A stretch of DNA of 26,844 nucleotides from Candidatus Omnitrophota bacterium (GTDB taxonomy: Bacteria; Omnitrophota; Gorgyraeia; Gygaellales; Profunditerraquicolaceae): positions 1-26,844 of the forward strand of contig JAQUMS010000001.1 of assembly GCA_028717985.1 (NCBI GenBank), written 5' to 3'. How positions within the stretch are numbered: position 1 is the stretch's first letter; each line of letters begins with the position of its first letter. Below, piece by piece: positions 2-26,844 of the stretch. A model generated the notes under the pieces. That model ran no database searches, was not told where the DNA came from, and worked only from the letters and a program-made list of their open reading frames with translations. A program made the translations under genes and the position numbers.

Positions 2-307
2 AGCCATCAAGAGAGAAACAGCGGCGCCGAAATAAATACTCGACTGAAACATGGATTTAAATTTCACCGCGAACTTTTTATCAAAAGCTTCTTCAAGCAG
101 GAACTGAACAACGGCAGTAAAGAATACAACTTTATACGCATATTCTCCGAATGCAAAGCCGTTTAGCACAACTGACTGATAAAAATAAGCCGTGTTAAAC
201 ACAATATCCCGGTTCATAGCTACCATACCTATGATAAACGTAAGTATATTAAATATCCTCAGATTGGTCTTAGTATACAATTTTAAGACTGCATTATCCG
301 TGGCTGA
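2..307 (-). other. Start of a hydrophobic, probably multi-pass membrane module (truncated by the window edge)
   Basis: After DGG at 308-316: LRIFNILTFIIGMVAM, VVFFTAVVQFLL, SIYFGAAVSLLMA, which are hydrophobic stretches of TM-like character. Family not assignable. Confidence 0.55.
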
Positions 308-15300: not shown

Positions 15301-18300
15301 CAAAAATCATCTTTTTCTGTAATGATTCCGGCAATACCCCATATAATCCTTGCTGTATACTTAATATCTTTTTGGCATTTTCATCGTCAGGCCTTATAAT
15401 TGTTGATAAACCTTCTAATGGCAACGGATTATTATCTTTATCAATACAAACTGCAATCCCCAAATCTTTTCTCGTCTTTGCTACTGCTGCTCTACTAACT
15501 TTATAAACTTGCTTATACGCATCCTTATATTTTTGTTCAAGAGATGACTTATCATCTTTATTCTTTATTGTATTATTTTTTCTTTCTCCGCCGTCATTTT
15601 CAATTTTAGAGGGTTCATGTTCAACCCTGATCTTCTCAATAACCCCAACCAGATTCTCATTCTCATACAATGGACTCTGCGTCTCAATTCCTGTAACCTT
15701 GCTCTCATCTATCCTGACTATCTCTATTCCTCTCGCCTGAAGATCCGCCTCTTCTCCCTCTCCAAATAACGGCTGTCCTCCCTTTACATGCTTGCTAACC
15801 TGCGCGCTTCCCTGCAATACCAGCTTCGCGTCTTTCCCTTTAATCTTTACTTCCCCTAATTTTACTTTCGCGTCTTCTGATAATTCAGGCGCTATCACAT
15901 GCGAAATTATCTCTTCTATCTTTACTTCCCTTCCCAATACTTTGCTTATATGCCACGTTATCGCCTCAAGCTGTTTATTCAACGTCAATTGCTCGCTTAT
16001 ATTCAACTCATATTCTTCTTCTTCCTTTATATCCTTACTTTCAACTACCTTACCTTCTTTCTCTATCCTTACATCCTTTGATGTTTCCAAATCTGCTTTC
16101 ATCTTAGCTATATATACTACAGGCACTCCTAATCTTCTCCTGTTTACCAATTCTTCCGCTACTTCCTTATATAACAATACAGGCATCAATGATGTCCATA
16201 AGGACCCGTTCCCCATCACGATTGCTTTCGCCCTGCTCAACGCTTCAACCGCTTGCCTGCTCGCTTTTGGATAATTCTCCGAATTTATATCCAGTTCTAT
16301 AAAATTATTCGCTTCTTTACCTATATCTACCCGGTGCGTAAAGTATTCTTCCCTTATAAATTCTTTATGCGCCTTATCCGTCATGATCGTCTGCGCAGCT
16401 ACTAATCCACCATTCTCATATTTTCCTACCAGCGCACTATGTTCATAATCGTAACTTACGGGGATAAACTGCGTTTCTCCCAATGCCATCAGTTTATCAA
16501 GATTCGGGAATCCTACCGCTTGGCTGTCTTTTCCTCCACTCAGTAATCCCATGTCGTACGCCGCTCCCATCAACAACAAATTCGCGCTCGACATCTTCTT
16601 TAACGGTATGATACCTTGTCCTACTAATTCACGGTCTACCAACTCTCCCAGATTTAATACGCTGGATAAAAATATAAGATAATCTGTTGATTTTTCAAAT
16701 TCTTCGGATGGATTCTTTAATATCTTCCTGATGAGGCTCTTGATCTCTTCTTTTTGGGTGGGTTCTTCTATTGCAGTCAATACTTCACTTAATCTCTTTT
16801 CCCACACAGGATACAACTTCTCTCCCGTTATTCGCCCTTTAGTCGTTACGTATTCCGGCATTTTATCCGCGTCTGATTCACTCCAGAATAACGTGAATAT
16901 TTTGAAGTTATCGTTGCTTAAAAATATCGCCAGCCCTGACGCGTCTCCCGGAGGGATAAAATACATCCCCAGATTCTTGAACAGGCTCGCCATGATTTCC
17001 CAGCTCGCTCCTCCGTCATCTGATGATGATATTATACATGCTATCTTCCTCAATCCTTTGGCTATCAGCCTCTGTAAAAACGTTGTGGTCGCTTTCCCGC
17101 CGCCACCAAGGTATACTAAGTCTAATAACCCTTTCTTTTCCGGCGGACCTCTCCCTTCATACTGCTCTAAGATTGATTCCTTATATTTCTGGTAATACCC
17201 ATCCTGAAAATATCCTGCCAATATTCTCCCAACGCTTAATCCCGTGTTCTTCTTCACATCCCATACCGCTTCTTCCAACTGCCGGTTATTCCTCTTCAAA
17301 TTGTCTTTATACACCGATTCCAGAAAACCCAATGTCCTCGCCGCACGCGCATCTATCCCTGCATAGAATTTCATGAATTCTATTCCCTCTCTGCCTCCGT
17401 ATATTTTATCTGCTCCTGCAAAATACTCTTCCGCTGTCTTTGATACCTCATAAATATTTTTCATCTCTTCCAACGCTTCGTATAACTCTTCACCTCTCTT
17501 CATCCCTATCCCAAGCTGGTATAAATCTATCCAACTGGCACGGTTTAGATAATTTAAATTGAACTGCCGGTATACTTCCGACAATACTTCCATCCGTTCC
17601 GCAAACGTCAATGACCTGTTTACTCTCTTTACGTTCTGCCTCTTCAGATATGTCTCTGCCGCGTTTAAACAATAGTCTCCTGCTTCCCTCAACTCTACAA
17701 ACGTCTTCCCTTTGGACATACCATCCAGAAAATAATACACCACTCCCAATCCAAACCCGATATGCTTAAATCCTTCTACCTCATAATTTTCATCCGTCTT
17801 CTCTACGATATCATTTATATATCTTCTTACCCCTTCAACATTCTTAAACGGCAAATCTTCTGAATACACCTGCAGATTCCCGAATAATAACGCATCTTTC
17901 CCTTCTATCTCTCTGCTTAATAAGTAATCCCTTAACGCATGGTCTTTCCCTGTATGTCTCTTACGGATATCTATTGATGTAATGCCCGACTCCCTCACTG
18001 TGTATTCTTCCCAGAACAATGAATGGTATTTCTTCAACAATTCTATCGTCCCTCTGCAACATTCTTCTCGCGGCGACATCTCTCCTTCTTCTATATTAAC
18101 TATCTCCAGCTTCTTCGACGGCAGATGGATTATACTCACGCTATACACTCTTCCTTTGGCATCACGATGCAGGATCACTTCCGGCTTCTTGAACGGATAG
18201 TTCGGGTATTTGTTCCTCATCAAGCTCTTGTTCCCTTCATACTCCGCCCAGAATCGATTCGCCTGTTCCTTTAATACGCTTTCTATTACTTCTACCTGTT

Positions 18301-21300
18301 TCTCCGGAATATAATTCGAATTGTTGTAATCGTTCTCTGTCAACGGTATTCCGTATTCATTGTATTCTACCTTAAATGTCCCAGCCGACGCGTATACTGC
18401 CAGGTTCTTTCTTACGTCATACGGCAGGTATTTTACTATTCTCGTCGCTAATCCTTTTTCTCCCGTATGATCATCATCGTAATACCGTAAGTTACTGATC
18501 AACACGATCTTCTGCCCTTTCCTCAGCAGTTCCACCAACGGCTCCCGCACAAAGCTTTCTTTTAATGTCCCTTTACGGAATTTGTCATACGGCAAAATTA
18601 CTCCATCCGGACCTCCCAATACTATTACTTCCGGATTCCCGCTCCTTTCGTAGCCGCCGTCGCTAGTCATCCACGCTTTCAGCATATCCAGCGCAGGTTC
18701 AAGGATCGCTTTCACCTCGTCCAAATCCTTTGCGTCCCTTACTTCGAATATAATTGTCGGCGATCCGCCCAACGCCATCCTGATCACGTTGGCTATCCCA
18801 TACACATACGTCGCATCATCTACCGTGATATTCTCTTCTACCATCTGTGTCCCTAATCCTTTACCGTATGTATTGGTATATACTATCGCTATATTGAACA
18901 CATTCTCAGGATGCGACATGATCGCTTCTATACCCGTATGCGCCACTCCAGGCAACCCTAATAACGGACATGTGATCCCTTTCCCTGCGAACCGCTCTAC
19001 TATTCCTCGTGCAATCGCTTTGATCTTCGGGTTCTCCGCGTCCACTTCCATGAACGTCAACGGCATATACATCATTTTCTCTTTTCTGCCTGTGAACATC
19101 TTGATCAGATACATCCCCAACGCTTCTGCCGCGCTGTAGCCTTCTGTCTCTATCTCTTCTCCCTTTTCTACCGCGACTGATATCTTCATCTTATCCTGAT
19201 CTTGAGTCTCTATCACTACCTGCTGATTCAATGTTACAGGTTTATTATCTGTCTTTCTCATCGCATCCATAAACGATTTCCCAAACGCAGCTTCCATATC
19301 CGATATCTTGCTTCCGCCCGCTTCTGCAAAATCGCTCTTGAACACTTCTTCTGCTATCGCGCTCGTTAATACTCTCACCACTCTCGATTCTGCAATCATT
19401 AATTTTGTTCCCACCTCAACTATCGCTTCCATGAATGTCCTGAAATCTTCACCTTCCGCCTCTTCATATCCACGCCGTATAATTCGTTTTGTTTTATCTT
19501 TCTTATCCACATCTATGCTCTTTTCAGATTTTATACGGTTCTCGGTTTCTTTCGCCTGTATTTTGGATATAACGTCTTCAAAGGTTACACGGATATCTTT
19601 ATCTCCGCGCGCTTTCTTGGCTTTCTCTATCTCAAACATCGCCGCAGTGATCTCTCTGACGAATTTTACCGCGGGATTCGAATTCGCGTCCTGTTTCGTC
19701 AAATAGGTAAAGTACACTACCATATCCTGTAATAACGAGCTTGTCCTTCCGATGACTTCCAAATTATTCCTTAAATCTTCCTTTATATCTAATGATACTA
19801 TGATTACCGGGATCCCTCTTCTTTCAAGGCTTTCCGCATATTCGTATGCTTGTCTGTAATTACCATTGTTCCGGTTCAATAAGAAGATCGGCAACTGGGT
19901 ATTCCCTGCCTGCTCAAACACTGTTTCATATAAGGTACGGTCTGATTCCAAGCCATATCCTACCAACACGTTGTTATTCGTTCCGCCGGCAATGTTCTTG
20001 TTTGCCCCTTCGTTATTTAACTGCAGGAATTCTTTGGCTATGAATCTTAAATCATTGTCGTAGATTATCGCGAACCGGTTATGCCCATTCATTCTCTGCC
20101 TGAACAGCATTTCCGCAAGTTTGATTCCACCACTTTTTAAACCATTGCTATACGCTAATTCCTCATTGGCTCCTGCCATGGTCGAAACGTAGTATTCCAA
20201 ATATTTTCTCGCTTCTTCCACGTCTTTTAATCCGGCTACTAACCCTAAGTACAACGGGATATACACCATCAGGGTTTTCCTGTTCATCTGTCTGCCGCCG
20301 ATATCCCCGGGTATATCGTCTATAACCAATATTCTCGCGTCTGCATCTTTCATTAATTCTTTGCCTGCTTCATTTAATTTTCCGCTGTTGGCTGCTACAA
20401 TTCTCTGTTTAAACCGGTCTTTGGTCGCGTTGAAGAAATCCACTGTTTCTTTCGTGCTCCCGCTTCGGGACATTTCGAATATTAATGTGTTCTTGTTATT
20501 CGCTCCAGCAGGAATGATCTTCAAATGCGCCGGGTTATTCACTACCACCCATTTCACATGGATACCTCTCATCTCAAAGTATTTGTTCAATGCCCACGCC
20601 AGCTGATGTGTGTACATTTCATTCGCGCCAATCCCTGATGTGAACACGTATTCGATTCTTCCTAAGTCTACTGTCGCAAAATACGCGTCTAACCGCTCAA
20701 TTAATTCTTTCAGATCAGGATATTTACTTGCTCCTTTGATTGCGGTTAATCCAAGGAACCTGCCTGTGAAATCGTTCATGTTATCTCTGAACACAAACGA
20801 TACCATACCTGCTGTTTCTCTCATGAATCTCAAATACTCTGTTATTGCCCCGCCTTCTACACTGCTTTCGCCGCCTTCTATTCCATATCCTTCCGCTTGT
20901 ATATCCACGCTGATCTTTTTATCCGCGAATTCGCCTTTTCCGTATTCTTTTACCTGTCTTAGTTTGTAATCTTCTACCACTGGCCGGAAGAACTTCACTC
21001 CCTCTAATATCTCTGCCGCTTCGTCTGTTCCCAATCCTGCCGCTTCTGCCATTCCTTTTACAAACGCCACGCTGTCTATGGATGTCCTTAAGATCTGTAC
21101 CACTCTCTTGTAATCGCTGATTCCAAGCATCCTCATTACATAATCCAGTTCCACTAAGAATCTTCTCGCGTCTAAGCTAAAGGTACCTTGTCCTTCATTC
21201 GCTAAGACTTCCCCGCCGTCTCTATAGCTCTTAGAGTTTGCGTCCTTCGTCCTTCGTCCTTCGTCCTTCGGAGAAAATTCTCCGCCGTCGTTAGTGTTAA

Positions 21301-24300
21301 ACAATTCCATCATTTCAGCAGCTTTCTCCGCGTTCATCTTCACCACTTCTGCAATATGCGCCGCCGGTAATTCTGCCATCGCCTCTTCCATGGAAACCTG
21401 GCCTAAGCCCATGATAAACGGCCGTGAGTTAAACAGATAATCGGTTGTAAACGTGTGGATTAATCCATCCCGGGTCCTGCCCAGGGATTTCAATAACGCT
21501 TTTCCGGTCTGCTGAAGCGGTTTTCTGGTTTCGCGGTTCAACCAAGCCTTCAGACAAGGTTCCATTTCCGTCAAGATTGATATGGACATCGCGTCGCCCA
21601 TCTGAGCGATTCGTATAAATCTGCCTATCATCGCGTTGCTCACAGCACGGGTAAGTTTAACCGGTTTTATTTCCGCCCCATATTGATCTGCGGCTTCCTT
21701 CCCGAACAAATACGCCTTAAGCTCAATCAAAATACGATTAACCAGGTATGTTTCTTCAACAGGAATTGTTCCCAATGTCTTGATCTTGGCTATTTTAACC
21801 AGCATTGTTTTTTCCGCGTAGGCTGATTGCAATAATTCCATCACGATGTTTTCATCCGTAAATTTATGGTTTTTCTGCAAACCAATATCGTTAAGATATT
21901 CCGTCAAGAAGTTCACCGCGCGATACCGAACAAGCATATCTTCCGCGTCAATGCTTAATTCCACTAAAGCCTTTGGCAAATCAAAATTTTCGGCATTAAG
22001 TTTAATTAACGCGCGGTAAGCCTGGATCATTGTGTCGCGATTCGCAAGCGCTTCACTCAACGCGCTAATAACGGCTTCATCGTTTACGCCTAATTCTCCA
22101 AGCGCTTCCGCCATACGAACACCGGCCAATGGATCTTCGTTTTCCAATCTATTGATCAATACATGCTTTGTTTCTTCCGCGAAAACGGTATTCTGAAGCT
22201 GTTTCACTAATTCAAGAATACGCGTCCGGGAAATCTCAGTTCTTAAAAGTTCAACACCATCAGCAGTTACATCTGTTCTTCCGTCCACCATCCATTGTCC
22301 TTCGCCTCCCTGCTCAACATCCCCGCCGTCTCTATAGCTCATAGAGTTTGCGTCCTTCGTCCTTCGTCCTTCGTCCTTCGGATTAACATTTTCTTCCTGT
22401 CTATTTTTAATGTTATTTTCAATTAATTCTCTATCACTTTCAGATGGAGTATAGAATCGCGCGATTTCAGATAATTCCCTAGTTATCAATAACCGCTGTA
22501 GCCTGCTTAACGCAGGATTAACTTCCATGTTGCGTAATACTCCGACTTCATGCCTGAATAACTTCCGGGTAATAGGATGTATTTGCCTATTATCTCCACC
22601 GTCACGATAGCTCATAGATGATAGCAGATAGCTCGTAGTTCTTTGCTCTTTGCTCTTTCTCTTTGCAAAACCGTTATTGCCTTTACTCTGTGCGCTATAC
22701 TCTGTACTCGGTCCTTGAACTACTTGGTCTCTTGATCCCTTGAGCACTTGGGCACTTGTTTCTCCACCATCGTTGGTGTTCTTAGCTTCTTGGTCGCTTG
22801 GGTTCTTGGTCTCTTGGACACTTACATTTAGTGATTTCTTAAGAAATTCTGCCGCTTCCAATACATTCGCAGAAATTGATTCTAAACTGATCCAACCCTT
22901 AACTGAATACTCCTGAATTTTGTTGATTTCTGCTAAAGCATCAATAATTTCCTGATCTGTCCCTGTAACTGTGTATGGAGCGTAGGTATAAACATGAACC
23001 CTTAAAGGAGCTACCTGTTGCACGAAATGCTGTATAAAATCAAGATAGGATATTCTCATCTGTAAAGGCTTGGACATAAGAATCACGGTATAATCGCCGA
23101 AAGATAATAAACCGCTTGATAAAAGCATTTCCTTTGCATTTTTTATATTCTCATTTGTATTGGTCGATTTAGTTTCCAGGATAATCTTCTCTTCCGGAAC
23201 AACATGAAGCGTCAATAACTTCGCGATAATTTCAGCTTCGCTTAAAACTTCAATATTTTCAAATACATTGCCGAAACCGGCCTTCCTGACGTTTTCAATT
23301 AACGGAGCAGTTAACCTGCCTTGAGCGCCTGAAACCAAAATCTTATCAGTCTTTCCTTCAGTATACAACCCGGACGCATGCCTCATGGTTGATAGATCAT
23401 CATTACCTAATAAAATGGTCATATCAGCTTTATACACTGGCAGAACGCTGATCTTATCATGAGCCATAGTCAAATAATCGGCAATTGTCTGCAATGCTTT
23501 TGCCTGCTGTTCTCTGGGATCTGCTTTCTTTCCGGCTAACCATTCATTCAGCTTCCCGGTCTTATGGGCATACCACAAACCTGCTGCGAGGCCAATTCCA
23601 ACACCTGCCACAATACCGAAGAATTGAGTCTCAGCCATGAATTTCAAAAGCGAGCCATTGTCAACAAAGAAACCTCCATCGTTATGTTTTGCTTCTGTAA
23701 TTTCAATCAGGATATCTGCAAGATAATTATTTTCATAAAGCGGTTTCTGCTTTTTTATACCTGTTATATGATCTTCAGGCACATCAATGATTTTTATTCC
23801 TACCGCCTCCAAAGATTCCCGCTCAGTCCCCAGAAATAATGGCTGTTTACCTTGCACTTTTTTGCTTACCTGCGCCTTTCCTTCTTTAATCGCAAGGGCA
23901 TCTGTTCCCGTAATAATTATTGTGCTCAAATATTCCGAAGTTTCCGGTTTTAAATCAGGAACCACTACATGCGAAATAATATCTTCAATCTTGACTTCTT
24001 GATTAAGTGTCCTGCTTACATGCCGCCGTACAGCCTCAAGCTGCCATCCTAAAGATACCTGATCTTTAATATTTAATGTATACTTATCATCTTTACTCAA
24101 TGCCGCCTTATCAACCGGTTCACCTTTATTATCAAGAATCTTAATCGATTTTGCAGTCTCTAAATCCGCCTTTATCTTGGCTATGAATACTACCGGAACT
24201 CCAGCTTTTCTTCTTGATACCAATTCTTTGGCGATTTCAGGATATAACAACACTGGCATCAAAGATGTCCATAAAGAACCATTACCCATAATTATTGCTT

Positions 24301-26842
24301 CGGATTCATTTAACGCTTTGACCGCCTGACTGCTTGCCTTAGGATAATGTAACGACGTCTGGTCGAGTCTTACAAAATCACGGCTTGCCTTTTCTTCATC
24401 CGCACCTACACGATGATGAAAAAATATCTCCCAGACAAAATCATCGTGGATACTATCTGTCATTCTTGTCTGCGTCCTAATAGAATCCCCATTCATATAT
24501 ACACCTACAAGCGAGCTGTGTTCATAATCATAACTAACGGGTATAAACTGTGTTCCCTTCAACGCCAACAACTGCTCTACTGTGAAAAATTCTCCCGCCT
24601 GAACGCCTTTCTCGCCGATTAATCCGTTATCATATGCCGCTCCCATCAACAATAAATTAGCACTCGACATTTTCTTTAACGGAATTATACCTTTGCTGAT
24701 TAATTCACGGTCAAGCATCTTTCCTAGATTTAATATACTAGAGGTAAATACAAAAGAATCTTCAGGAATTTCAAAATTAACTCCTTCTTGGTTCAAGATT
24801 TCCCCGCTTTCTATTGCTGATCTTAATTGCGCTTTCCTGACAGGATTTGACATCGCGGAAAGCATTTCGGCAAGCCTTCTTTCCCATACGGGATAAACTT
24901 CTTCAGCGGTAATACGCCCTTTAGTTGTCACAAATACAGGCATTTCTTTAGGATTAGACTCGCACCAGAATAATGTTAGTATCTTAAAATTGTCATCGCT
25001 TAAGAATATTGCCAATCCCGACGTATCGCCCGGCGGGATAAAATAAATACCTAATTTATTGAATAAACTCGCCATAATTTCCCAGCTTGCTCCTCCATCA
25101 TCCGATGATGAAATAATACAAGCTAAAAGTCGTAAGCCTTTGGCGATAAATTGCTGTAGCAAAGTTGTAGTAGCCTTACCACCTCCACCTAAATAGGCGA
25201 TTTTCGGTGGTGCACGTCCAGATTTCCCTTTAAGTATCTCCTGTTTATATCTTAAATAATATCCATCCTGGAAATATCCCGCTAAGGTCCGGCTGATGCT
25301 AATCTGGGTCTCTTTATGCGCCGCTTCGATATCACGAATTAAATCTTCATTTGTTTTTTTCAAATGATCTTTATATAACCACTGTAAAAATGCGAGTGTA
25401 CGAGCAGCCCGAGGATCTGTTCCCGCATAAAAATCTATTAAATTCAAGCCGTGATGTTGCAAATAAATTCTATCTATTATTTTAAAATAATCATCTATAC
25501 AGGAAACAGTGTTATATGCTTGCATTACGTCCTGTAATGCCCTGTTTAATTCTTGGCCCTGAGCAACTTTCATTCCTTTCAAATAAAGCCTGGTCCATGT
25601 AGAACTTTTTAAATAAGTAAGATTAAATGAATCATAGGTTTCGCTTAAAAAATCAATTTTCTCTTTAAAAGTTAGATTGTTATATCGTCGGGAATTTAAT
25701 TGTTCCTCCAGATATAATAATGACGCTATCGAACAATAATCATGCGATTTATCTTTCAAATCTCTAAAGTTTCCGCCTTTGGATATTCCATCAAGGAAAT
25801 AATATATTGCTCCCAATCCAAAACCTATATGTTTAAAGGCACTCCCCGATATCAGCTGTTTATTTCTCCCGTTTACATCATTTATATAACGATGTATCCC
25901 AGGAACAAGTTTAAACGGTTCATCTTCCGAATAAACCTCAAGATTACCAAATAGTATTGCATCTTCCCCTTTAATCCCTCGCTCTTTTAGATAATCCTGC
26001 AACGCATGATCTTTACCCGTTTTAATATTCCTGATATCTATTGAAGTTACGCCGGATTCCCGGACTATTATTGTTTCTTTCAAATCAGGATTTTGTTCAA
26101 TTGCCGCCTTAATGTCTTTAAAATATGATTCTCGTAAAGATTGTTCTTTTGCCTCTAAATTAAAAACTTCCAATTTCCTTGAAGGAAGATATATCATACT
26201 TATACTGTATACTCTTCCGGAAATATCTTTGTGGAAAATTATCTCCAGATCTTTAAATGTAAAATTAGGATATTTATTTCTCCATACACTCTTGTTTTGT
26301 TGATATTCATCCCAATATTTTTTCTTTAAATCTTGCAGAATATTATTTATGGCAGATACGGACTTTTCGGTAATATATGTTTTTTCGTTATATGTGTTTT
26401 TAGTCAGAGGTATTCCGTATTCATTGAATTCCACCTTGAATGTTCCAGCTGACGCATATATTACCAAATTCTTTCTCACATCATACGGTATCAGCTCCAC
26501 GACTCTTGAATAAATACCCTTTTCTTTCGTATGATCGTCATCGTAATACCGTAAGTTACTAATCAGCACGATCTTCTGCCCTTTCCTCAGCAGTTCCACC
26601 AACGGCTCCCGTACAAAGCTTTCTTTTAATGTCCCTTTACGGAATTTGTCATACGGCAAAATTACTCCATCCGGACCTCCCAATACTATTACTTCCGGAT
26701 TCCCGCTCCTTTCGTAGCCGCCGTCATTTTCAATTTTAGAGGGTTCATGTTCAACCCTGATCTTCTCAATAACCCCAACCAGATTCTCATTCTCATACAA
26801 TGGACTCTGCGTCTCAATTCCTGTAACCTTGCTCTCATCTAT
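2..26842 (-). CDS. Giant multidomain protein, internal fragment (>=8,947 aa; start and stop both outside the window); DGG-delimited carbohydrate-metabolism and cell-envelope modules
   Basis: Manual translation of the minus-strand frame whose codons begin at + positions 2,5,8,... shows no TAA/TAG/TGA across the window. Recognisable enzyme motifs occur in this one frame from end to end (EPCGLTQ at 629-649, HLHIQ at 2897-2911, SDDGG three times, DGDGT at 14291-14305, STNTNEN near 23150). Confidence 0.96.
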   Translation of the reverse strand, partial: MDESKVTGIETQSPLYENENLVGVIEKIRVEHEPSKIENDGGYERSGNPEVIVLGGPDGVILPYDKFRKGTLKESFVREPLVELLRKGQKIVLISNLRYYDDDHTKEKGIYSRVVELIPYDVRKNLVIYASAGTFKVEFNEYGIPLTKNTYNEKTYITEKSVSAINNILQDLKKKYWDEYQQNKSVWRNKYPNFTFKDLEIIFHKDISGRVYSISMIYLPSRKLEVFNLEAKEQSLRESYFKDIKAAIEQNPDLKETIIVRESGVTSIDIRNIKTGKDHALQDYLKERGIKGEDAILFGNLEVYSEDEPFKLVPGIHRYINDVNGRNKQLISGSAFKHIGFGLGAIYYFLDGISKGGNFRDLKDKSHDYCSIASLLYLEEQLNSRRYNNLTFKEKIDFLSETYDSFNLTYLKSSTWTRLYLKGMKVAQGQELNRALQDVMQAYNTVSCIDDYFKIIDRIYLQHHGLNLIDFYAGTDPRAARTLAFLQWLYKDHLKKTNEDLIRDIEAAHKETQISISRTLAGYFQDGYYLRYKQEILKGKSGRAPPKIAYLGGGGKATTTLLQQFIAKGLRLLACIISSSDDGGASWEIMASLFNKLGIYFIPPGDTSGLAIFLSDDNFKILTLFWCESNPKEMPVFVTTKGRITAEEVYPVWERRLAEMLSAMSNPVRKAQLRSAIESGEILNQEGVNFEIPEDSFVFTSSILNLGKMLDRELISKGIIPLKKMSSANLLLMGAAYDNGLIGEKGVQAGEFFTVEQLLALKGTQFIPVSYDYEHSSLVGVYMNGDSIRTQTRMTDSIHDDFVWEIFFHHRVGADEEKASRDFVRLDQTSLHYPKASSQAVKALNESEAIIMGNGSLWTSLMPVLLYPEIAKELVSRRKAGVPVVFIAKIKADLETAKSIKILDNKGEPVDKAALSKDDKYTLNIKDQVSLGWQLEAVRRHVSRTLNQEVKIEDIISHVVVPDLKPETSEYLSTIIITGTDALAIKEGKAQVSKKVQGKQPLFLGTERESLEAVGIKIIDVPEDHITGIKKQKPLYENNYLADILIEITEAKHNDGGFFVDNGSLLKFMAETQFFGIVAGVGIGLAAGLWYAHKTGKLNEWLAGKKADPREQQAKALQTIADYLTMAHDKISVLPVYKADMTILLGNDDLSTMRHASGLYTEGKTDKILVSGAQGRLTAPLIENVRKAGFGNVFENIEVLSEAEIIAKLLTLHVVPEEKIILETKSTNTNENIKNAKEMLLSSGLLSFGDYTVILMSKPLQMRISYLDFIQHFVQQVAPLRVHVYTYAPYTVTGTDQEIIDALAEINKIQEYSVKGWISLESISANVLEAAEFLKKSLNVSVQETKNPSDQEAKNTNDGGETSAQVLKGSRDQVVQGPSTEYSAQSKGNNGFAKRKSKEQRTTSYLLSSMSYRDGGDNRQIHPITRKLFRHEVGVLRNMEVNPALSRLQRLLITRELSEIARFYTPSESDRELIENNIKNRQEENVNPKDEGRRTKDANSMSYRDGGDVEQGGEGQWMVDGRTDVTADGVELLRTEISRTRILELVKQLQNTVFAEETKHVLINRLENEDPLAGVRMAEALGELGVNDEAVISALSEALANRDTMIQAYRALIKLNAENFDLPKALVELSIDAEDMLVRYRAVNFLTEYLNDIGLQKNHKFTDENIVMELLQSAYAEKTMLVKIAKIKTLGTIPVEETYLVNRILIELKAYLFGKEAADQYGAEIKPVKLTRAVSNAMIGRFIRIAQMGDAMSISILTEMEPCLKAWLNRETRKPLQQTGKALLKSLGRTRDGLIHTFTTDYLFNSRPFIMGLGQVSMEEAMAELPAAHIAEVVKMNAEKAAEMMELFNTNDGGEFSPKDEGRRTKDANSKSYRDGGEVLANEGQGTFSLDARRFLVELDYVMRMLGISDYKRVVQILRTSIDSVAFVKGMAEAAGLGTDEAAEILEGVKFFRPVVEDYKLRQVKEYGKGEFADKKISVDIQAEGYGIEGGESSVEGGAITEYLRFMRETAGMVSFVFRDNMNDFTGRFLGLTAIKGASKYPDLKELIERLDAYFATVDLGRIEYVFTSGIGANEMYTHQLAWALNKYFEMRGIHVKWVVVNNPAHLKIIPAGANNKNTLIFEMSRSGSTKETVDFFNATKDRFKQRIVAANSGKLNEAGKELMKDADARILVIDDIPGDIGGRQMNRKTLMVYIPLYLGLVAGLKDVEEARKYLEYYVSTMAGANEELAYSNGLKSGGIKLAEMLFRQRMNGHNRFAIIYDNDLRFIAKEFLQLNNEGANKNIAGGTNNNVLVGYGLESDRTLYETVFEQAGNTQLPIFLLNRNNGNYRQAYEYAESLERRGIPVIIVSLDIKEDLRNNLEVIGRTSSLLQDMVVYFTYLTKQDANSNPAVKFVREITAAMFEIEKAKKARGDKDIRVTFEDVISKIQAKETENRIKSEKSIDVDKKDKTKRIIRRGYEEAEGEDFRTFMEAIVEVGTKLMIAESRVVRVLTSAIAEEVFKSDFAEAGGSKISDMEAAFGKSFMDAMRKTDNKPVTLNQQVVIETQDQDKMKISVAVEKGEEIETEGYSAAEALGMYLIKMFTGRKEKMMYMPLTFMEVDAENPKIKAIARGIVERFAGKGITCPLLGLPGVAHTGIEAIMSHPENVFNIAIVYTNTYGKGLGTQMVEENITVDDATYVYGIANVIRMALGGSPTIIFEVRDAKDLDEVKAILEPALDMLKAWMTSDGGYERSGNPEVIVLGGPDGVILPYDKFRKGTLKESFVREPLVELLRKGQKIVLISNLRYYDDDHTGEKGLATRIVKYLPYDVRKNLAVYASAGTFKVEYNEYGIPLTENDYNNSNYIPEKQVEVIESVLKEQANRFWAEYEGNKSLMRNKYPNYPFKKPEVILHRDAKGRVYSVSIIHLPSKKLEIVNIEEGEMSPREECCRGTIELLKKYHSLFWEEYTVRESGITSIDIRKRHTGKDHALRDYLLSREIEGKDALLFGNLQVYSEDLPFKNVEGVRRYINDIVEKTDENYEVEGFKHIGFGLGVVYYFLDGMSKGKTFVELREAGDYCLNAAETYLKRQNVKRVNRSLTFAERMEVLSEVYRQFNLNYLNRASWIDLYQLGIGMKRGEELYEALEEMKNIYEVSKTAEEYFAGADKIYGGREGIEFMKFYAGIDARAARTLGFLESVYKDNLKRNNRQLEEAVWDVKKNTGLSVGRILAGYFQDGYYQKYKESILEQYEGRGPPEKKGLLDLVYLGGGGKATTTFLQRLIAKGLRKIACIISSSDDGGASWEIMASLFKNLGMYFIPPGDASGLAIFLSNDNFKIFTLFWSESDADKMPEYVTTKGRITGEKLYPVWEKRLSEVLTAIEEPTQKEEIKSLIRKILKNPSEEFEKSTDYLIFLSSVLNLGELVDRELVGQGIIPLKKMSSANLLLMGAAYDMGLLSGGKDSQAVGFPNLDKLMALGETQFIPVSYDYEHSALVGKYENGGLVAAQTIMTDKAHKEFIREEYFTHRVDIGKEANNFIELDINSENYPKASRQAVEALSRAKAIVMGNGSLWTSLMPVLLYKEVAEELVNRRRLGVPVVYIAKMKADLETSKDVRIEKEGKVVESKDIKEEEEYELNISEQLTLNKQLEAITWHISKVLGREVKIEEIISHVIAPELSEDAKVKLGEVKIKGKDAKLVLQGSAQVSKHVKGGQPLFGEGEEADLQARGIEIVRIDESKVTGIETQSPLYENENLVGVIEKIRVEHEPSKIENDGGERKNNTIKNKDDKSSLEQKYKDAYKQVYKVSRAAVAKTRKDLGIAVCIDKDNNPLPLEGLSTIIRPDDENAKKILSIQQGLYGVLPESLQKKMIFVKEHDLHITLGVINNATPNNHDVILLLRNKVEDSFPGSLRLSGIKIGAFKGGIIILEFYPDGVSDYKIFDSINKGVKESFLEFNQFNPVLYHMTLFYVKELLTEEEHKILYEKIEEFRPLKQSVLLLVDNLYLEHFCASVNVYDHDIIGTFFNLKQKYNIISTLLSQELTEMLVEEGGRQIRKFLEKLSTGGKSAYADLSKVQGLWEAVEEYGKEPAKYSTETLLKRDSSSIPRIEVRGRNESSGEAAQVAIIGIPLNYREDTMKEFRRLPGAEKMSLKMGGFMTVEANIAGVDKALPIRYVRSHLVEILEVAGYEAGIVIDARKTMTIVMSDGDGTLYGKPTATENPILKKSAAYRALIEYLNAGGVYMLISGNDLGLTLQRILAEDALPVEIRNRFIVVANGAASLNVFDKEGNIKEYTGYRLNALNEEAEEQEELDAIYLGDDEKKGGNDWPAYEEMGFERSVSVTSKGKKDVMDIVHKNYVGGNEVGTGLVLKGAVEYAREHRGERLFGIKELEALIRISESEITAPSQNDGGLGMSRKEDYKQNLVLFERLYQKDADEVLQILKVEADHTGRFLDEIVAGIVGILEIKDSKSLYSNLNFTKLARAPPIEYIWIGGAGIRTTSFLKSLVNYFMKKAGDKYRNYKRLIVLAIDGVSDDGGHIRKLEDSLLNVPGWDKYPLATGDIGVFPSIFTLSDSKIELLTLKRITGKSVEEQIFENIKDITFRFRDNLPVDWNFFCANMFSVARRIDREWVAPGIITESLNGASFGVNRASWQNLFYVMSRYLTGELKKGNQHISNERRVYPGVYEMVGAINGLAVPCSFDQSSMAAILQGMGVKINDEVMVIGKANGNFYYTKVEGIVINVERIEDGKNVKERKIFFRTTPLKTDKFHLISRKGVSFTLGGKKIKLTVNKNGSVILRCNGEKFTISEDKGDEGKTFIRYRNQDYVLPTNTSWFFLKINHSFIEFKSRMVEEQTNISDAKDYHLTPIEKVIFRNVEMKAVGVQQGKIRTYAFRKSGEYSYANLEAIEGIRSTKQAIIFGDCSFVTSLLPNLMTEGIPQEMAARKDIPRIFMFKIMQDTESKGLSVIQQIELIERSIRMNTSFKSFKFKDICDYIVLFDPQEIDAATYWKFQALKEEQRKILEQPEIQKRIAIGELKYSKIVPEDPAEFNKDTLKEELARKGIKSYFVKVSDVKLSEINGKYAYKEESMIRILHEIVKDFSGEDGGEGKEDIKETRGILYGFLEETGLLPMFSNYGEFPESHQIFEAWKFYDEKLSSAQVYYFSKNVILGKADVEIEKDIISLHSCWFRSFVPGHEFGREIIARTFIRGAEIGELVYGQMPAEVERYYTLSQREEKELDEWDGIFDGSIAAGIQQQINNSDAYFKKIFTTELKSISLIYEDRKLGIIRESTLSFIARAKSEWIRYMYKKRFPEAKFNKNDIERLLKINFLINKYITLKSISKLNLETEKLLLINKILLDIENNLNDFLQLGDKNSPEFFEDRMGKDNFVNSKIVKDINYRDGGEKPVVRTMRIPSTPATWKRIENLKRFNHQMANGITAEDSRSQLEGSSLEEIYNGKGKGGIIITAVQPDQKVLKEMEIEAGMRPKTFFIKYDHKKLTLFYFTQKEAKEYQTRVALGDEEVILPDISVILKIAGVSVVHIDGKQYLGLADYDEFLERIKDIMQRKQSDGGIETYPGYLNGNVISPANAYSTGTEAGQRSYEIPWPFPDKQSIRGIHDPEWVKSFMVVWAISELNERSSRQITVNRILKKTKDVFEAHGFTWDRDHVISLLNGLRRRGLIVNAKSGNRKDFSVEEDKVTVDLNARLYAVWSRNVEDINVDLAEGFIHGKEEFLNVIAEYAKVTALWGRYPVEVNHVILRAIMFFDESSRKTMADWILSGPRNSALEDAIALNLDYERAVQDWLKMQAYELTGRSIYHLTAEISPMAGGLGRVELYHGNAMFELGADSIYVAPWYLHSRDSFGNLYTVDYGSLPNPITDIKPYATMETFIQGCKVRFEVAQGYLNVKRGDTVNLIPIYLIRDIPENYHCRIINILYEYSTCDCPASIWEFTEFFNKAALELIRKREVEKKHEKELLHEEYKSCVVDSNDAQTLPVAAFRKAFYSKKESIAPAPDKDEAFEIMNSALFSGTTHTYYNRAWADDFEFGKNFLRKAGIPDEWLWLFLHIFVDDYGTWKVVWDLTSGGVRASDVSKAVAAVHAFEVNKYDPAVDLFGVTNGDNYVYSSEFFRDALIKTGSRDYLHPTPLEILAAKSYVKKEMGLNQYQMVVGYFGRLVPEKAGRKRAFTNVNIEAMVKAGIQVVIYGVARWNPVMRGELEALEADLKSKKEKEPDVYSGRFIFKSQFSIDDQRKALAATDVQIQDSDRETEAAGSTESDIGANGGLQLATPYWEGMIPFMGDLVNREKMTGNVLMPEKDSAESYLKVVLWANEQYQSGELSQLQSYAYKISGFVDARYTAAAYLRFWHNGFRGKRAVVNPRVVGEIGIDSKYLTLTSTTSRGEISIFKDENEFYLMGKKKEVGNLAKNLILTLSISVDPEFAPFGSSRVPEDSIFVELVNDHGIRLKFSPVRKIYDNVIEYSLTIPEDFPLPFKGTVRATSGLWQQVRSFEIVPEEYDPLEGDELIETLCPVDFKVNDARNILFGKFGMFPFGFETSEGMQYANSAGIIGFMNKANMLLKNGTTIRTPFYHFIRYIAGLCEGCVTKDILVKHMRFIGSKQISDEEKMKELLELLKQFTRRSEYRLVESWVNGLTIEQMATLMIGNKNVNSFSFRTVSGPVTAETSGLKSFETVLKNLIANRHAEPVIENDFMDFIKYMDAMFKGVKGWEEIMAYLQTIAQEPVPSFLKAYFLFRFVEKLNEKMEENLVEAFINKATLDNAETVLNSGKFDMKPFEFYTLRGRWMADSAGLQDFLFTMKQVNGKGGVSFHDYMNYLRKLFEDMPDSKYMMDYLEYVGSHEIPEYKKFVALLEKLEVRLISRIQYYRMFSCEPAQSGFKCEVDLESPERFFDGGIADKNTVITSGIKNQSGNEILVTRKKMVMNIKDTLLKKADILGALRAPVSEVEAVKLISRYQLNIIMALANGTAYDSLQKGAQRKIAMENYEYLLSLMGVDAHFKKTIRTASHKIVNIKILQIKKTFSDKALAIKAKGEVMNILEARDIVGRYYYIIHALAVSLPYSSLREDFRNTIAEDSYEYLQDEMVNDKLFGMVITEADTMVLADKVKHESVWERAKILADSENGKLILKDSLKLIGNYAYVLLGLARGLKYVELHSNGLEMVSFHTYNEIVETLTGNPVFRSAVTGSISGIDVTPEYYKQVLEDKADLLLLQEGKISRALAEGLIGYHFEVMRILAEGMPYSSLSDYARRQLSAGIYYYLAREIVDDAGFGRKIVRASGKAINIRMEGIKNKILASARKIVNDEEIVGITQAKAKINHNYLIIHSLAHAQQFEISPVGRQKILVKASYEFLLGEMKRDEMFADYIIHADQMVIAKNGWRKILMGRAQVLAAKKNANMSPEDAVKLIGNTYFVLRGLSRSLAYQELDHCAWDNISQDEYENILGNKKRDIEFTKIVNNAMRNIYIHQRDITGSLIKKASLVLALDKRIDFWSARKLFGRYIYIFEGLADNVSYRGLDIEAQNLMTSAEYEALLIEVKKNDELKELIVQADSALGIGFWDKRLIILNKAKDIIAHKSSLTLAQASGIVGPYRYVLRALDENLPYHSVYAETRAVVSEKQYAVLQDLMKEDYLFAVMIRNAVSIIKVQKSNFNINEITHNPIMAVFLEIQSGDVSEKWKQSLSVRDQEYADIFEYLRENDDVLKRVLQLFMIGEVNSDVLARIIKDQLKQPQLKTVTGFGSHMLGAIHRALAKRGYVFDEEWVVTPKTVELLIGYTRNYRKAEGKIFNTDELYSVPSVLARLEEIAGISAVGIQYPLAPEKGAAFSASGFMPQGGIIAQNRENDGGDESEFDRNLKREWDRKFKQGLFGFDISRVSLRDEGKFKVLFHPDRPMTINLMKQLMPPIQGYNPSKFNFHKANPQELLMSLNVGGVNTDLFINIQPRVAYNFFMVPERKANLPQVISEREIRVALALLDMSKASNFRLGFNSLGGGTRVFHLHIQGFYYWGVIPVEKFATETVEDISGVLFEKTVDYPAESYVVRSENALGVARLTSMIIAQFLRNNIPHNLIFARSGPEKKIVILPRKSIFPIINETYLDFGWQEISGEIVVPTKEMFENITENDIHYLLASIAEPLAFTIRKVGAEAKSISVRVLEDGGTSRKKSARGQTKEINVAYAEIEKARLEERGYRIQGVNPVIMSQWKDPAKRDVDLYLHALVLIAGIELELPYGVGKIDVYRAVRESNIILIKEASRPVPEMYFDIISRTLYIFEKLDDFSSEELALKLMSTVLRAVSRLRIPAADESSWKNIRNYLQPANFKKVITLLRPDWPERPFRSLQIAEIALEVTRLTYKVGGLADVGYGLSKELAKIGHNVDIFTLKYSKPTNSPADQNLRYEYIGSVWVPIGSTWTVEVKVYRTNLHTLPGIHDLKGRLRGYVLEPVGSGSVLAEYPYSDQLSLEQAILISRGSLQAMKDIPELHKNSYDIIHAHDKDSALSLVYKDGLPEFRHYFSRMQPILTINNIRHQGVHSFDRFSLLNLPYEYGGVFDNFGSMNLLKGGIVKSNRANTVSERHAYELTTAEGGRDLDWLLSQKAREFRFSGIINGIDYNFYNPATDPILPFRYDFAHGNVRESFEQKRNNKEVLQKLLGLKVDRTAPVIALIARLDDQKGVGLLAAKIRDILKANRNAQIIVAGREYDKQSVDQIRWLPFEYDPEGKWDFRGRAYILPKFLDESIVHLVYASADIFLVPSLDEPCGLTQMIAARYGTPAVVRYVGGLADTIENYDPLRKTGYGFVFFDPTPEALQEAIQRALETYSQEDHWLRILENLRKVDFSWNNSAIKYILMYWDAMTFNGASGKSVFEQDGGSATDNAVLKLYTKTNLRIFNILTFIIGMVAMNRDIVFNTAYFYQSVVLNGFAFGEYAYKVVFFTAVVQFLLEEAFDKKFAVKFKSMFQSSIYFGAAVSLLMA
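368..1895 (-). other. glgA: GT5 glycogen/starch synthase domain
   Basis: LQIAEIALEVTRLTYKVGGLADV (KxGGL at 1835-1849), IIHAHD, LLKGGIVKSNRANTVS, GIINGIDY..NPATD, IARLDDQKG, VPSLDEPCGLTQMIAARYGT..VVRYVGGLADT, GFVF, DFSWNNSAIKYILMY. The full GlgA motif series is in the correct order. Confidence 0.95.
2438..3361 (-). other. HIT-superfamily GDP-hexose phosphorylase domain (GDP-L-galactose phosphorylase VTC2 / GDP-D-glucose phosphorylase GDPGP1-like)
   Basis: EWDRKFKQGLFGFD, YNPSKFNFHKANPQELL, LFINIQP..FFMVP..LPQVI, FRLGFNSLGGGTRVFHLHIQG (HxHxQ at 2897-2911), FGWQEISGEIVV. These parallel the VTC2 motifs EWEDR..GLFRYD, KFNFTK and FRLGYNSLGAFATINHLHFQ. DGG lies on both sides. Confidence 0.85.
3900..6040 (-). 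repeat. Eight degenerate ~90-aa helical protein repeats of unknown family
   Basis: The motif [LI][IVF]GxYxY(V/I)(L/I)x(A/G)LAxx(L/M)xY recurs with the Gly-position codon at 6029, 5753, 5483, 5213, 4940, 4670, 4400 and 4130. Spacings are 276, 270, 270, 273, 270, 270 and 270 nt. Confidence 0.8.
7442..9490 (-). other. Alpha-glucan phosphorylase (GT35)-like GT-B domain with C-terminal beta domain; PLP-lysine position is Asp
   Basis: YHLTAEISPMAGGLG, IYLIRDIPEN..ILY, DSNDAQ, FSGTTHT (8831-8842), SKAVAAVHAFEV, FGVTNG, GYFGRLVPEK, IQVVIYG, TDVQIQDSDRETEAAGSTESDIGANGGLQL (8105-8131 = EAAGSTESD), then a beta domain ending YSLTIP..GTVRA. Order and spacing match bacterial GlgP. Confidence 0.78.
10223..11608 (-). 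other. Two DGG-bounded modules of unknown function (294 aa at 10727-11608; 165 aa at 10223-10717)
   Basis: Open in the main frame and bounded by DGG at 11609, 10718 and 10214. No motif recognised. Part of the region is very AT-rich (8 G+C in the 60 nt of 10921-10980). Confidence 0.6.
11640..13470 (-). other. YvcK/GlmR (UPF0052, CofD-like) domain, divergent copy C, with a ~130-140 aa beta-rich insertion
   Basis: YIWIGGAGIRTT, LAIDGVSDDGGHIRKL, LATGDI, VEEQTNISD, ANLEAIEGIRSTKQAIIFGDCSFVTSLLPNLMTEGIPQEM, IPRIFMFKIMQDTES, AYKEESMIRIL. Confidence 0.75.
13750..14810 (-). other. HAD class IIB (Cof/PMM-like) phosphatase or mutase domain with non-canonical motif order
   Basis: EANIAGVDKA (motif III-like, 14414-14428) precedes SDGDGTL (motif I, 14291-14305), LISGN (motif II, 14177-14188), ANGA (14087-14098) and YLGDDEKKGGND (motif IV, 13943-13972). 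Confidence 0.8.
14880..15420 (-). other. 2H phosphoesterase (LigT / cyclic phosphodiesterase fold) domain
   Basis: Two Hx(T/S)-hydrophobic motifs 85 aa apart: DLHITLG (15272-15283) and LYHMTLF (15017-15028), preceded by EGLSTII. AT-rich segment. Confidence 0.75.
15588..15714. repeat. Perfect direct repeat of 26718-26844 (end of the YvcK module including the DGG codons; the match runs off the window)
   Basis: 127/127 identical, offset 11130 nt (in frame). Confidence 0.97.
15600..17130 (-). other. yvcK: YvcK/GlmR (UPF0052, CofD-like) domain, copy B
   Basis: LVYLGGGGKATT, ACIISSSDDGGASW, FIPPGD, SSANLLLMGA, QFIPVSYD, YPKASRQAVEALSRAKAIVMGNGSLWTSLMPVLLYKEVAEEL..PVVYIAK..LET. Confidence 0.85.
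17740..18652 (-). other. Degenerate (pseudo-)HAD IIB domain, copy B
   Basis: VIVLGGPDGVIL (motif I with the nucleophile Asp replaced by Gly), IVLISN, VYASAG, SGITSIDIRKRHTGKDHAL (motif III), LLFGNLQVYSEDLPF (motif IV, GD changed to GN). Confidence 0.65.
18464..18661. repeat. Near-identical direct repeat of 26528-26725 (start of the HAD-YvcK module up to the DGG codons)
   Basis: 198 nt with 4 mismatches, all synonymous; 18549-18661 is a perfect match. Offset 8064 nt. Confidence 0.95.
18670..19230 (-). other. Second, partial PGI-like C-terminal (SIS) segment
   Basis: MMYMP..ARGIVERFAGKGITCPLLGLPGVAHTGIEAIMSHPENVFNIAIV..ALGGSPTIIFEV parallels the PGI segment Y..L..QL.AESLGK.G..P....G..DQHS..Q...GP.D...A...GRP.I.I. 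It ends at DGG 18653. Confidence 0.5.
19640..20790 (-). other. pgi: Phosphoglucose isomerase (SIS)-like domain
   Basis: VFTSGIGANEM (20621-20638), LIFEMSRSGSTKET (20444-20470), IPGDIGGRQ (20291-20305), AIIYDNDLRFIAKEFLQLNNEGANK (19997-20023), YLTKQDANSNPAVKFVR (equivalent to NPFDQPGVE..K). Confidence 0.75.
21211..21272. repeat. 62-nt direct-repeat cassette copy 1, containing (CGTCCTT)4 and the RDGG codons
   Basis: Identical to 22321-22382 except one base (21231 T vs 22341 A). Encodes PKDEGRRTKDANSKSYRDGG. Confidence 0.97.
21290..22321 (-). other. Alpha-helical module with a HEAT/PBS-lyase-like repeat
   Basis: LINRLENEDPLAGVRMAEALGELGVNDEAVISALSEALANRDTMIQAYRALIKL (about 22010-22160). The module is flanked by the two 62-nt cassettes. 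Confidence 0.6.
22321..22382. repeat. 62-nt direct-repeat cassette copy 2, containing (CGTCCTT)4 and the RDGG codons
   Basis: 61/62 identical to 21211-21272, offset 1110 nt (in frame). Encodes PKDEGRRTKDANSMSYRDGG. Confidence 0.97.
22604..22830. repeat. Degenerate 7-nt-periodic tracts forming low-complexity in-frame linkers
   Basis: atagctc-atagatg-atagcag-atagctc-gtagttc-tttgctc-tttgctc; tactctg-tgcgcta-tactctg-tactcgg; tacttgg-tctcttg; tcttggt-cgcttgg-gttcttg-gtctctt. They lie between and next to DGG 22595 and DGG 22763. Confidence 0.75.
22850..23490 (-). other. YdcF / DUF218 (ElyC/SanA-like) domain
   Basis: IADYL..KADMTILLGNDDL..ASGLYTEGKTDKILVSGAQGR..SEAEIIAK..VPEEKIILETKSTNTNENIKNAKEML..VILMSKPLQMR. 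Confidence 0.85.
23563..23625 (-). other. Single predicted transmembrane helix preceding the YdcF domain
   Basis: FFGIVAGVGIGLAAGLWYA, uncharged and Gly-rich, followed by HKTGK. Confidence 0.75.
23700..25205 (-). other. yvcK: YvcK/GlmR (UPF0052, CofD-like) domain, copy A
   Basis: KIAYLGGGGKATT, ACIISSSDDGGASW, FIPPGD, SSANLLLMGA, YPKASSQAVKALNESEAIIMGNGSLWTSLMPVLLYPEIAKEL. Paralogous to 15600-17130 with many synonymous differences. Confidence 0.85.
25780..26716 (-). other. Degenerate (pseudo-)HAD IIB domain, copy A
   Basis: Same GGPDGVIL, IVLISN, SGVTSIDIRNIKTGKDHAL and ILFGNLEVYSEDEPF motifs as copy B. Confidence 0.65.
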
Positions 26843-26844
26843 CC

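Follow-up and report, generated by a model that had tools for sequence, protein, structure and literature searches.

What are two nearly identical, heptamer-bearing cassettes doing inside one giant open reading frame (ORF)? The question arises in a contig assigned to Candidatus Omnitrophota bacterium (JAQUMS010000001.1 of assembly GCA_028717985.1), where two such cassettes flank a HEAT-like module. The window, by which we mean the whole stretch of DNA analysed here, has 26,844 nucleotides (nt) and is the entire contig C1 of a 1.63-Mb genome bin with 299 contigs. The host is probably an Omnitrophota bacterium and the source probably a landfill metagenome. An earlier note on this DNA took the cassette pair for the ends of an excisable unit and for a possible phase-variation switch. 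Our analysis favours another origin. The cassettes are probably copies of a lineage-specific, highly charged inter-module spacer, the twins having been left by recent copying through gene conversion or unequal recombination. The giant frame, the cassettes and their surroundings are located as follows (aa, amino acids; DGG, the tripeptide Asp-Gly-Gly).

2..26842, minus strand: the giant open frame, 8,947 codons without a stop and open at both contig ends, with 17 junction DGGs and three DGGs inside CofD domains.
22595..22762, minus strand: second spacer type, 56 aa (aa 1361-1416), which ends in SMSYRDGG and has a paralogue on contig C52.
22322..22594, minus strand: 91-aa segment (aa 1417-1507), with DGG at both sides and the upstream cassette as its tail.
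22317..22382, minus strand: upstream cassette, which encodes ..NPKDEGRRTKDANSMSYRDGGD, is the C-terminal tail of the 91-aa segment and adjoins the start of the HEAT-like module.
22351..22380, minus strand: heptamer tract within the upstream cassette, with the coding-strand sequence (AAGGACG)4.3, read as KDEGRRTKD.
22322..22330, minus strand: DGG codons that end the upstream cassette (aa 1505-1507).
21281..22321, minus strand: HEAT-like, all-helical module (aa 1508-1854), which ends in NTNDGG and has a 66%-identical paralogue on contig C268.
21212..21280, minus strand: 23-aa spacer EFSPKDEGRRTKDANSKSYRDGG (aa 1855-1877), bounded by the DGGs of 21281-21289 and 21212-21220.
21207..21272, minus strand: downstream cassette, which encodes ..SPKDEGRRTKDANSKSYRDGGE and is most of the 23-aa spacer between two DGG.
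21241..21270, minus strand: heptamer tract within the downstream cassette, likewise with the coding-strand sequence (AAGGACG)4.3.

The cassettes form a direct repeat of 66 nt (21207-21272 and 22317-22382), in which 64 of the 66 positions are identical (97%) and the longest perfect stretch is 41 nt. One direct-repeat family was found. By our own arithmetic, two 66-mers with 64 matching positions are expected about 1e-27 times by chance in 26.8 kb. The start-to-start distance is 1110 nt, or 370 codons, so the spacing of the cassettes is in frame. Both lie on the coding minus strand in the same frame and encode PKDEGRRTKDANS[K/M]SYRDGG; the coding-strand reading of the two is PKDEGRRTKDANSKSYRDGG-E and PKDEGRRTKDANSMSYRDGG-D. 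The earlier note had described them as twin 62-nt repeats with 61 identical positions, and this is confirmed for 21211-21272 and 22321-22382, where the sole mismatch is T at 21231 versus A at 22341. Its count of four CGTCCTT units in each is likewise correct, since Tandem Repeats Finder gives 4.3 units with 100% matches at both 21241-21270 and 22351-22380. The translations end in RDGG and bracket the module in frame, as had also been stated. A partial third copy of the repeat is present at 22592-22618 (SMSYRDGG), within the second spacer type.

The twins have no synonymous difference over about 20 codons, whereas the other five members of their family differ at many positions. Directly outside the 66 nt, the sequences of the two loci are unrelated on both sides. 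The lack of synonymous differences together with the unrelated flanks argues for recent copying of DNA and not for selection at the peptide level.

The cassettes are not unique in their genome. A search for further copies, which the earlier note had recommended, found at least seven members of one spacer family in the bin by regular expression and pattern, two of them in C1 and the others in C52, C211, C243, C268 and C292. The family consensus is K[D/E]EGRRxKDxNS[K/M]SY, followed by an optional ELSLSADNLVAGAMSY and by RDGG; in five of the seven copies a second DGG lies 23-46 residues upstream. All seven contain exactly four heptamer units and no indel. Five of these tracts are degenerate, and both C1 tracts are perfect. 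Both C1 cassettes are of the short form, without the 48 nt that are flanked by two GAGCTAT repeats in the long form. Among the 60 family members searched, the KDEGRR..SYRDGG spacer family is found in this genome only. The DNA pattern for SYRDGG has seven occurrences in this genome versus zero or one in each of the 60 same-family genomes, a level equal to that of the reversed-pattern control. In the source metagenome, the bins over the cassette have 2-3 times the depth of the flanks, and several different sequences continue from the tract. The extra depth and the varied continuations indicate that the spacer sits in further contexts there.

The heptamer alone was tried as a probe for the cassette elsewhere and was rejected. 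The pattern (AAGGACG)3 is too generic because more than 240 loci in many phyla carry it, and none of them is this spacer. At these loci (AAGGACG)n is found with n from 3 to 76. Two Omnitrophota genomes (L173:2216 and L223:1531) have in-frame inserts (..KDEGRRTKD..) in putative pheT and hisF, as judged by eye from the flanking translation. In the window itself, spacers at 22640-22666, 22731-22758 and 22788-22817 are likewise made of imperfect tandem repeats, with short units of 7, 8 and 16 nt. It seems that linkers in the giant gene lengthen through slippage, with units whose size is not divisible by three.

A paralogue and two relatives bear on the history of the twins. What C268 shares as a paralogy unit is the module together with the downstream cassette and its preceding NDGG-EFS (aa 1528-1880; identity 66% in aa, 71.6% in nt), and not the upstream cassette. 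As the paralogue shares the downstream cassette only, the downstream spacer would be the old C-terminal tail of the module. In relatives that are about 90% identical (X5 and X8, activated-sludge contigs from other studies), the upstream spacer has the long form, with a 37-nt insert that encodes ELSLFADNVVVG, in frame. The downstream cassette is absent from X5 and X8, and a 10-aa linker follows a single DGG instead, again in frame.

Other DGG junctions of the same gene carry patches of high identity. The stretch 18453-18661 matches 26517-26725 at 97%, and 15588-15714 matches 26718-26844 at 100%. In addition, C268:2-281 matches C1:18667-18946 at 98.6%, after which the two diverge exactly at a DGG. 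The paralogous modules that surround the patches have an identity of only about 72-77%, so copying between junction regions recurs in this gene. To be noted, C268 (1-2795) is a mosaic. After the 98.6% patch come a HEAT-like paralogue of 72% identity, a spacer of the long form and a membrane-associated module, and its last ~170 aa are nearly identical to the end of C52.

The repeat and its spacer family, the constant number of units, the differences in relatives and the further identity patches abutting junctions are all observed; from them we infer the direction and the mechanism of the copying. The short-form spacer would arise by a 48-nt deletion between the two GAGCTAT repeats. The short form would then be copied between two junctions 1.1 kb apart, in the lineage of this bin, with gene conversion or unequal recombination between spacers as the possible route. 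The heptamer tract would have been inherited with the spacer and kept at four units through the constraint of the reading frame, and would not be a slippage switch.

Several points weigh against this reading. The Logan k=31 contigs end inside the 41-nt perfect stretch, and rare variants in unit count or with a deletion would escape detection. The C1 tracts are perfect as opposed to five degenerate ones, which could reflect recent turnover within the tract by slippage; the copying event itself could also account for both C1 tracts being perfect. The proposed direction of copying would follow from one paralogue and two relatives only. Finally, cleavage at DGG, which is considered below, is conjectural, and the junctions do not have the hydrophobic P4/P7/P12 pattern of canonical double-glycine leaders.

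The tripeptide that ends both cassettes punctuates the whole frame. In the C1 frame DGG occurs 20 times versus about 2.4 expected, 17 times between recognisable modules and three times inside the CofD/YvcK motif. All giant frames of the bin (at least 800 aa; 95,898 aa together) contain 119 DGG versus 25 expected. The junction profile over 113 aligned sites is [N/S/F/R/Y]-D-G-G-[D/E/N/T] with Gly-Gly at P2-P1. These 113 sites have no periodic hydrophobic pattern at P4/P7/P12, and the information beyond P5 is at most 0.3 bit. One module shows how the borders are placed.

18653..21211, minus strand: sugar-isomerase-like module, 853 aa, after the downstream cassette, which matches free-standing 823-830-aa proteins end to end.

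Since this module aligns end to end with free-standing proteins, the DGG borders coincide with protein borders. It has no Pfam match, and its full-length matches are to free-standing proteins of 823-901 aa (P0018, P0028 and P0007). It appears to represent an uncharacterised enzyme family.

Enrichment of DGG is found in this genome and in G052 only, which is the sole other genome whose match to the GT5 module is close (69% identity); five further giant genes sampled from the family do not show it. In four giant frames without DGG enrichment (L017, L019, L022 and L025, from the genomes G018, G010 and G019), Ser-Ser-Pro and Ser-Ser-Ser are enriched 7-14 fold. These tripeptides may be the junction mark of another lineage.

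Of the four C39 peptidase domains (PF03412) in the genome, three lie in giant frames. The best one, on contig C170, has its catalytic Cys and His aligned with the peptidase domains of ComA and PCAT1, which are its best solved relatives. With C39 domains in which Cys and His align, cleavage after Gly-Gly is a reasonable guess, and DGG is probably either a hinge or a polyprotein processing site. A canonical double-glycine site is disfavoured by the junction profile, by the restriction of DGG enrichment to this genome and G052, and by the contig with the best C39 domain, which has no DGG. That domain (C170:1683-2039) lies in a 1,422-codon frame that has, as judged by eye, a TPR-like start and a YD/Rhs-like end, and it may belong to a different giant protein. 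The NCBIfam leader-peptide models gave no match on four spacer peptides. C37 and C52 are DGG-punctuated open frames whose modules include radical-SAM, methyltransferase and PPDK-like ones as well as winged-helix/MarR DNA-binding domains. The fusion of such regulators into a giant frame would be most sensible if the product is cut.

A bolder reading is conceivable. The KDEGRR..SYRDGG cassettes would be portable junction adaptors: at the protein level, leader-like spacer peptides between two DGGs that a protease excises during processing of the giant polyprotein and, at the DNA level, homology patches by which modules are moved, lost or duplicated in frame. We consider this doubtful. If it were true, the adaptors would be a bacterial counterpart of exon shuffling inside one gene.

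It is unlikely that recombination between the twins excises or duplicates the 1,110-nt HEAT-like unit in frame in living populations, as the earlier note had proposed. Such events would maintain variants of the giant protein that differ in module content. The substrate is suitable. The repeats are direct and lie 370 codons apart, and with 64 of 66 identical positions and a 41-nt perfect stretch they are longer than the minimum that homologous recombination needs. Junctions elsewhere in the same gene also bear marks of recombination within the gene, and C268 carries a paralogous HEAT-like module in a different module order. However, this paralogue is 28% diverged at the DNA level, so the shuffling is old and not ongoing. 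No deletion or duplication joint is found in four runs, whose k=31 contigs break at the cassette and cannot show rare or repeat-bounded joints. The relatives X5 and X8 carry the module at the corresponding position but do not have it between twin cassettes. A homologue without the module was found neither in 40 relatives, nor among 1.84 billion representatives, nor in a word-index search. What stands of the proposal is thus the in-frame arithmetic of the direct repeats and, given the recombination footprints at other junctions, a role of the cassettes as plausible recombination substrates on an evolutionary timescale; there is no sign of programmed or frequent excision. An invariant arrangement across strains had been named as a counter-argument. 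The arrangement does vary, as the downstream cassette is absent from X5 and X8, but the change consists of spacer replacement and of long versus short form, not of unit count or module loss.

The other half of the proposal, that slipped-strand mispairing in the heptamer tracts shifts the frame and reversibly stops downstream translation, is very unlikely. Its arithmetic is sound. The unit of 7 nt is not a multiple of three and lies inside the ORF, and both tracts are perfect. A change of +/-7 or +/-14 nt in the tract brings a stop within 8-27 codons, and +/-21 nt leaves the frame open, as predicted for a one-unit slip and for a change of three units. Heptanucleotide tracts inside ORFs that are linked to frameshifts are known in Haemophilus influenzae (PMC2651432). 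However, such phase-variable 7-nt tracts are made up of about 6-38 units, with variation from strain to strain (PMC2651432), compared with 4.3 units here. The length is equal in the seven paralogous spacers, five of them degenerate. In X8, 22334-22504 is covered 171 nt on 171 nt, and the upstream tract is equally long. No indel is listed at either tract in the four runs, with k=31 contigs that break at the cassette. The tracts begin at codons 1488 and 1858, and the start of the gene lies beyond the contig, so they are at least 1,487 codons into it. Neither is near a start codon, and no promoter-like site is found near them. With so few units, a length fixed in all seven spacers and in the upstream copy of X8, and a position deep in the gene, the switch finds no support. 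As a regulatory switch the cassette pair does not hold up, and in itself the feature is of modest interest.

Equally improbable is an assembly artefact in which the assembler joined unrelated pieces at a repeated linker. The bin is fragmented into its 299 contigs, many of which end in repeats, and the cassette family is multi-copy. Against this, the longest perfect stretch of 41 nt is shorter than the usual final k-mers and well inside a 150-nt read, and an independent Logan contig of the source run spans 21243-22382 with zero mismatches. Records from other studies contain both joints: in X8 record 23 the HEAT start is joined to the upstream segment via the cassette, and in X5 records 17 and 18 the HEAT end is joined to the next module. 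Misassembly is therefore unlikely.

The least probable alternative is a nucleotide or RNA signal, with the cassette or the octamer GACGGCGG conserved as a recombination site, an RNA structure or a ribosome-pausing element: DGG sites do use GAC (75% versus 26% background) and GGC (57% versus 26%) and strongly prefer the octamer, but the bias extends over the whole genome, in giant and ordinary frames alike: GAC encodes 63-64% of the Asp residues that precede any Gly (26% otherwise), and GGC encodes 47-56% of the first Gly residues in any GG (26% otherwise). The preference thus reflects codon context in this genome at large and does not mark junctions. The cassette RNA folds no better than shuffles (z -1.5 and -0.7) and the cassettes have no Rfam match and no promoter- or terminator-like site. 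A junction-specific signal at the octamer is thus largely refuted by the codon-context control.

The module between the cassettes resembles HEAT proteins in its N-terminal third only (Pfam HEAT_2, E 1.5e-5, 25.6 bits, below the 27.7-bit cut-off). For aa 1556-1650, the best outside matches are true multi-HEAT proteins. An AlphaFold single-sequence model of aa 1470-1900 has a mean predicted local distance difference test score (pLDDT) of 42 and gives no more than a hint of a helical module and of coil in the cassettes. For the module together with its cassettes, the sole match among 1.84 billion representatives is the genome's own paralogue, and neither a word-index search nor a search of 40 relatives yielded a homologue.

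The module families in the C1 frame are CofD-like (three times), HAD-like, DUF218, HEAT-like, sugar-isomerase-like and a GT5+GT1 glycogen synthase. At least eight Pfam families are tiled in this one ORF, which places it among the giant multi-enzyme genes. Many sister contigs have one frame without a stop over their whole length and are rich in DGG, with PPDK-like, methyltransferase, radical-SAM, GT2 and HTH/MarR modules. Positions 1-38 of the window equal the last 38 nt of C52 (7360-7397) at 37 of 38 positions, in identical orientation and reading frame. From this terminal overlap, the giant ORF probably continues into the 2,465-codon frame of C52, with a total of at least ~11,400 aa. Genomes of the same family have open frames of 13,000-57,000 aa.

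Cleavage of the products of giant Omnitrophota genes into many proteins is so far a suspicion. The junction spacers described here, as a small gene-internal repeat family copied between junctions, offer a concrete mechanism for a possible shuffling of modules in frame. They are recombination-prone seams and also the places where short-read assemblies of such genes break.

Giant multi-enzyme proteins in Candidatus Omnitrophota were described by West-Roberts et al. 2023 (bioRxiv 10.1101/2023.11.21.568195), and a class of 'multi-enzyme metabolic clusters' has been defined since (bioRxiv 10.64898/2026.06.07.730766). The gene studied here is like them in its single frame of more than 8,900 codons with many unrelated enzyme families, in the very long frames of its family and in the C39 domains of its genome. 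West-Roberts et al. weigh possible cleavage and state that information on cleavage points is lacking (bioRxiv 10.1101/2023.11.21.568195). By text search, DGG is mentioned in neither preprint, and the words linker, junction and cleavage are absent from the text of the second (bioRxiv 10.64898/2026.06.07.730766). Our gene differs from the described proteins in this DGG punctuation and in the KDEGRR..SYRDGG spacer family, which among the 60 family members searched is confined to this genome.

With the heptanucleotide tracts of H. influenzae (PMC2651432) the cassettes share a 7-nt tandem unit within an ORF, where a change of one unit shifts the frame. They differ in having 4.3 units, fixed in seven paralogues and one relative, and in lying deep in the gene. 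Furthermore, the bacterium here is environmental, and a surface-antigen logic would be conjectural.

The resemblance to double-glycine leaders and their C39 peptidases (PCAT1, ComA) lies in the Gly-Gly directly before each module start and in the C39 domains encoded by the genome. Canonical double-glycine leaders are amphipathic, with hydrophobic residues at P4, P7 and P12. In contrast, the sites here recur in the interior of the frame, always have Asp at P3, and combine it with a polar P4 (N/S) and no hydrophobic P4/P7/P12.

In polyketide synthase (PKS) and nonribosomal peptide synthetase (NRPS) megasynthases, conserved inter-module linkers act as recombination points. The modules of our gene differ from these in being unrelated stand-alone enzymes without an assembly line, and its junctions carry a fixed tripeptide. 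In PKS/NRPS, short conserved junctions stand between otherwise unrelated modules, and mosaic identity stops at the junctions; the giant frame of C1 appears alike in both respects.

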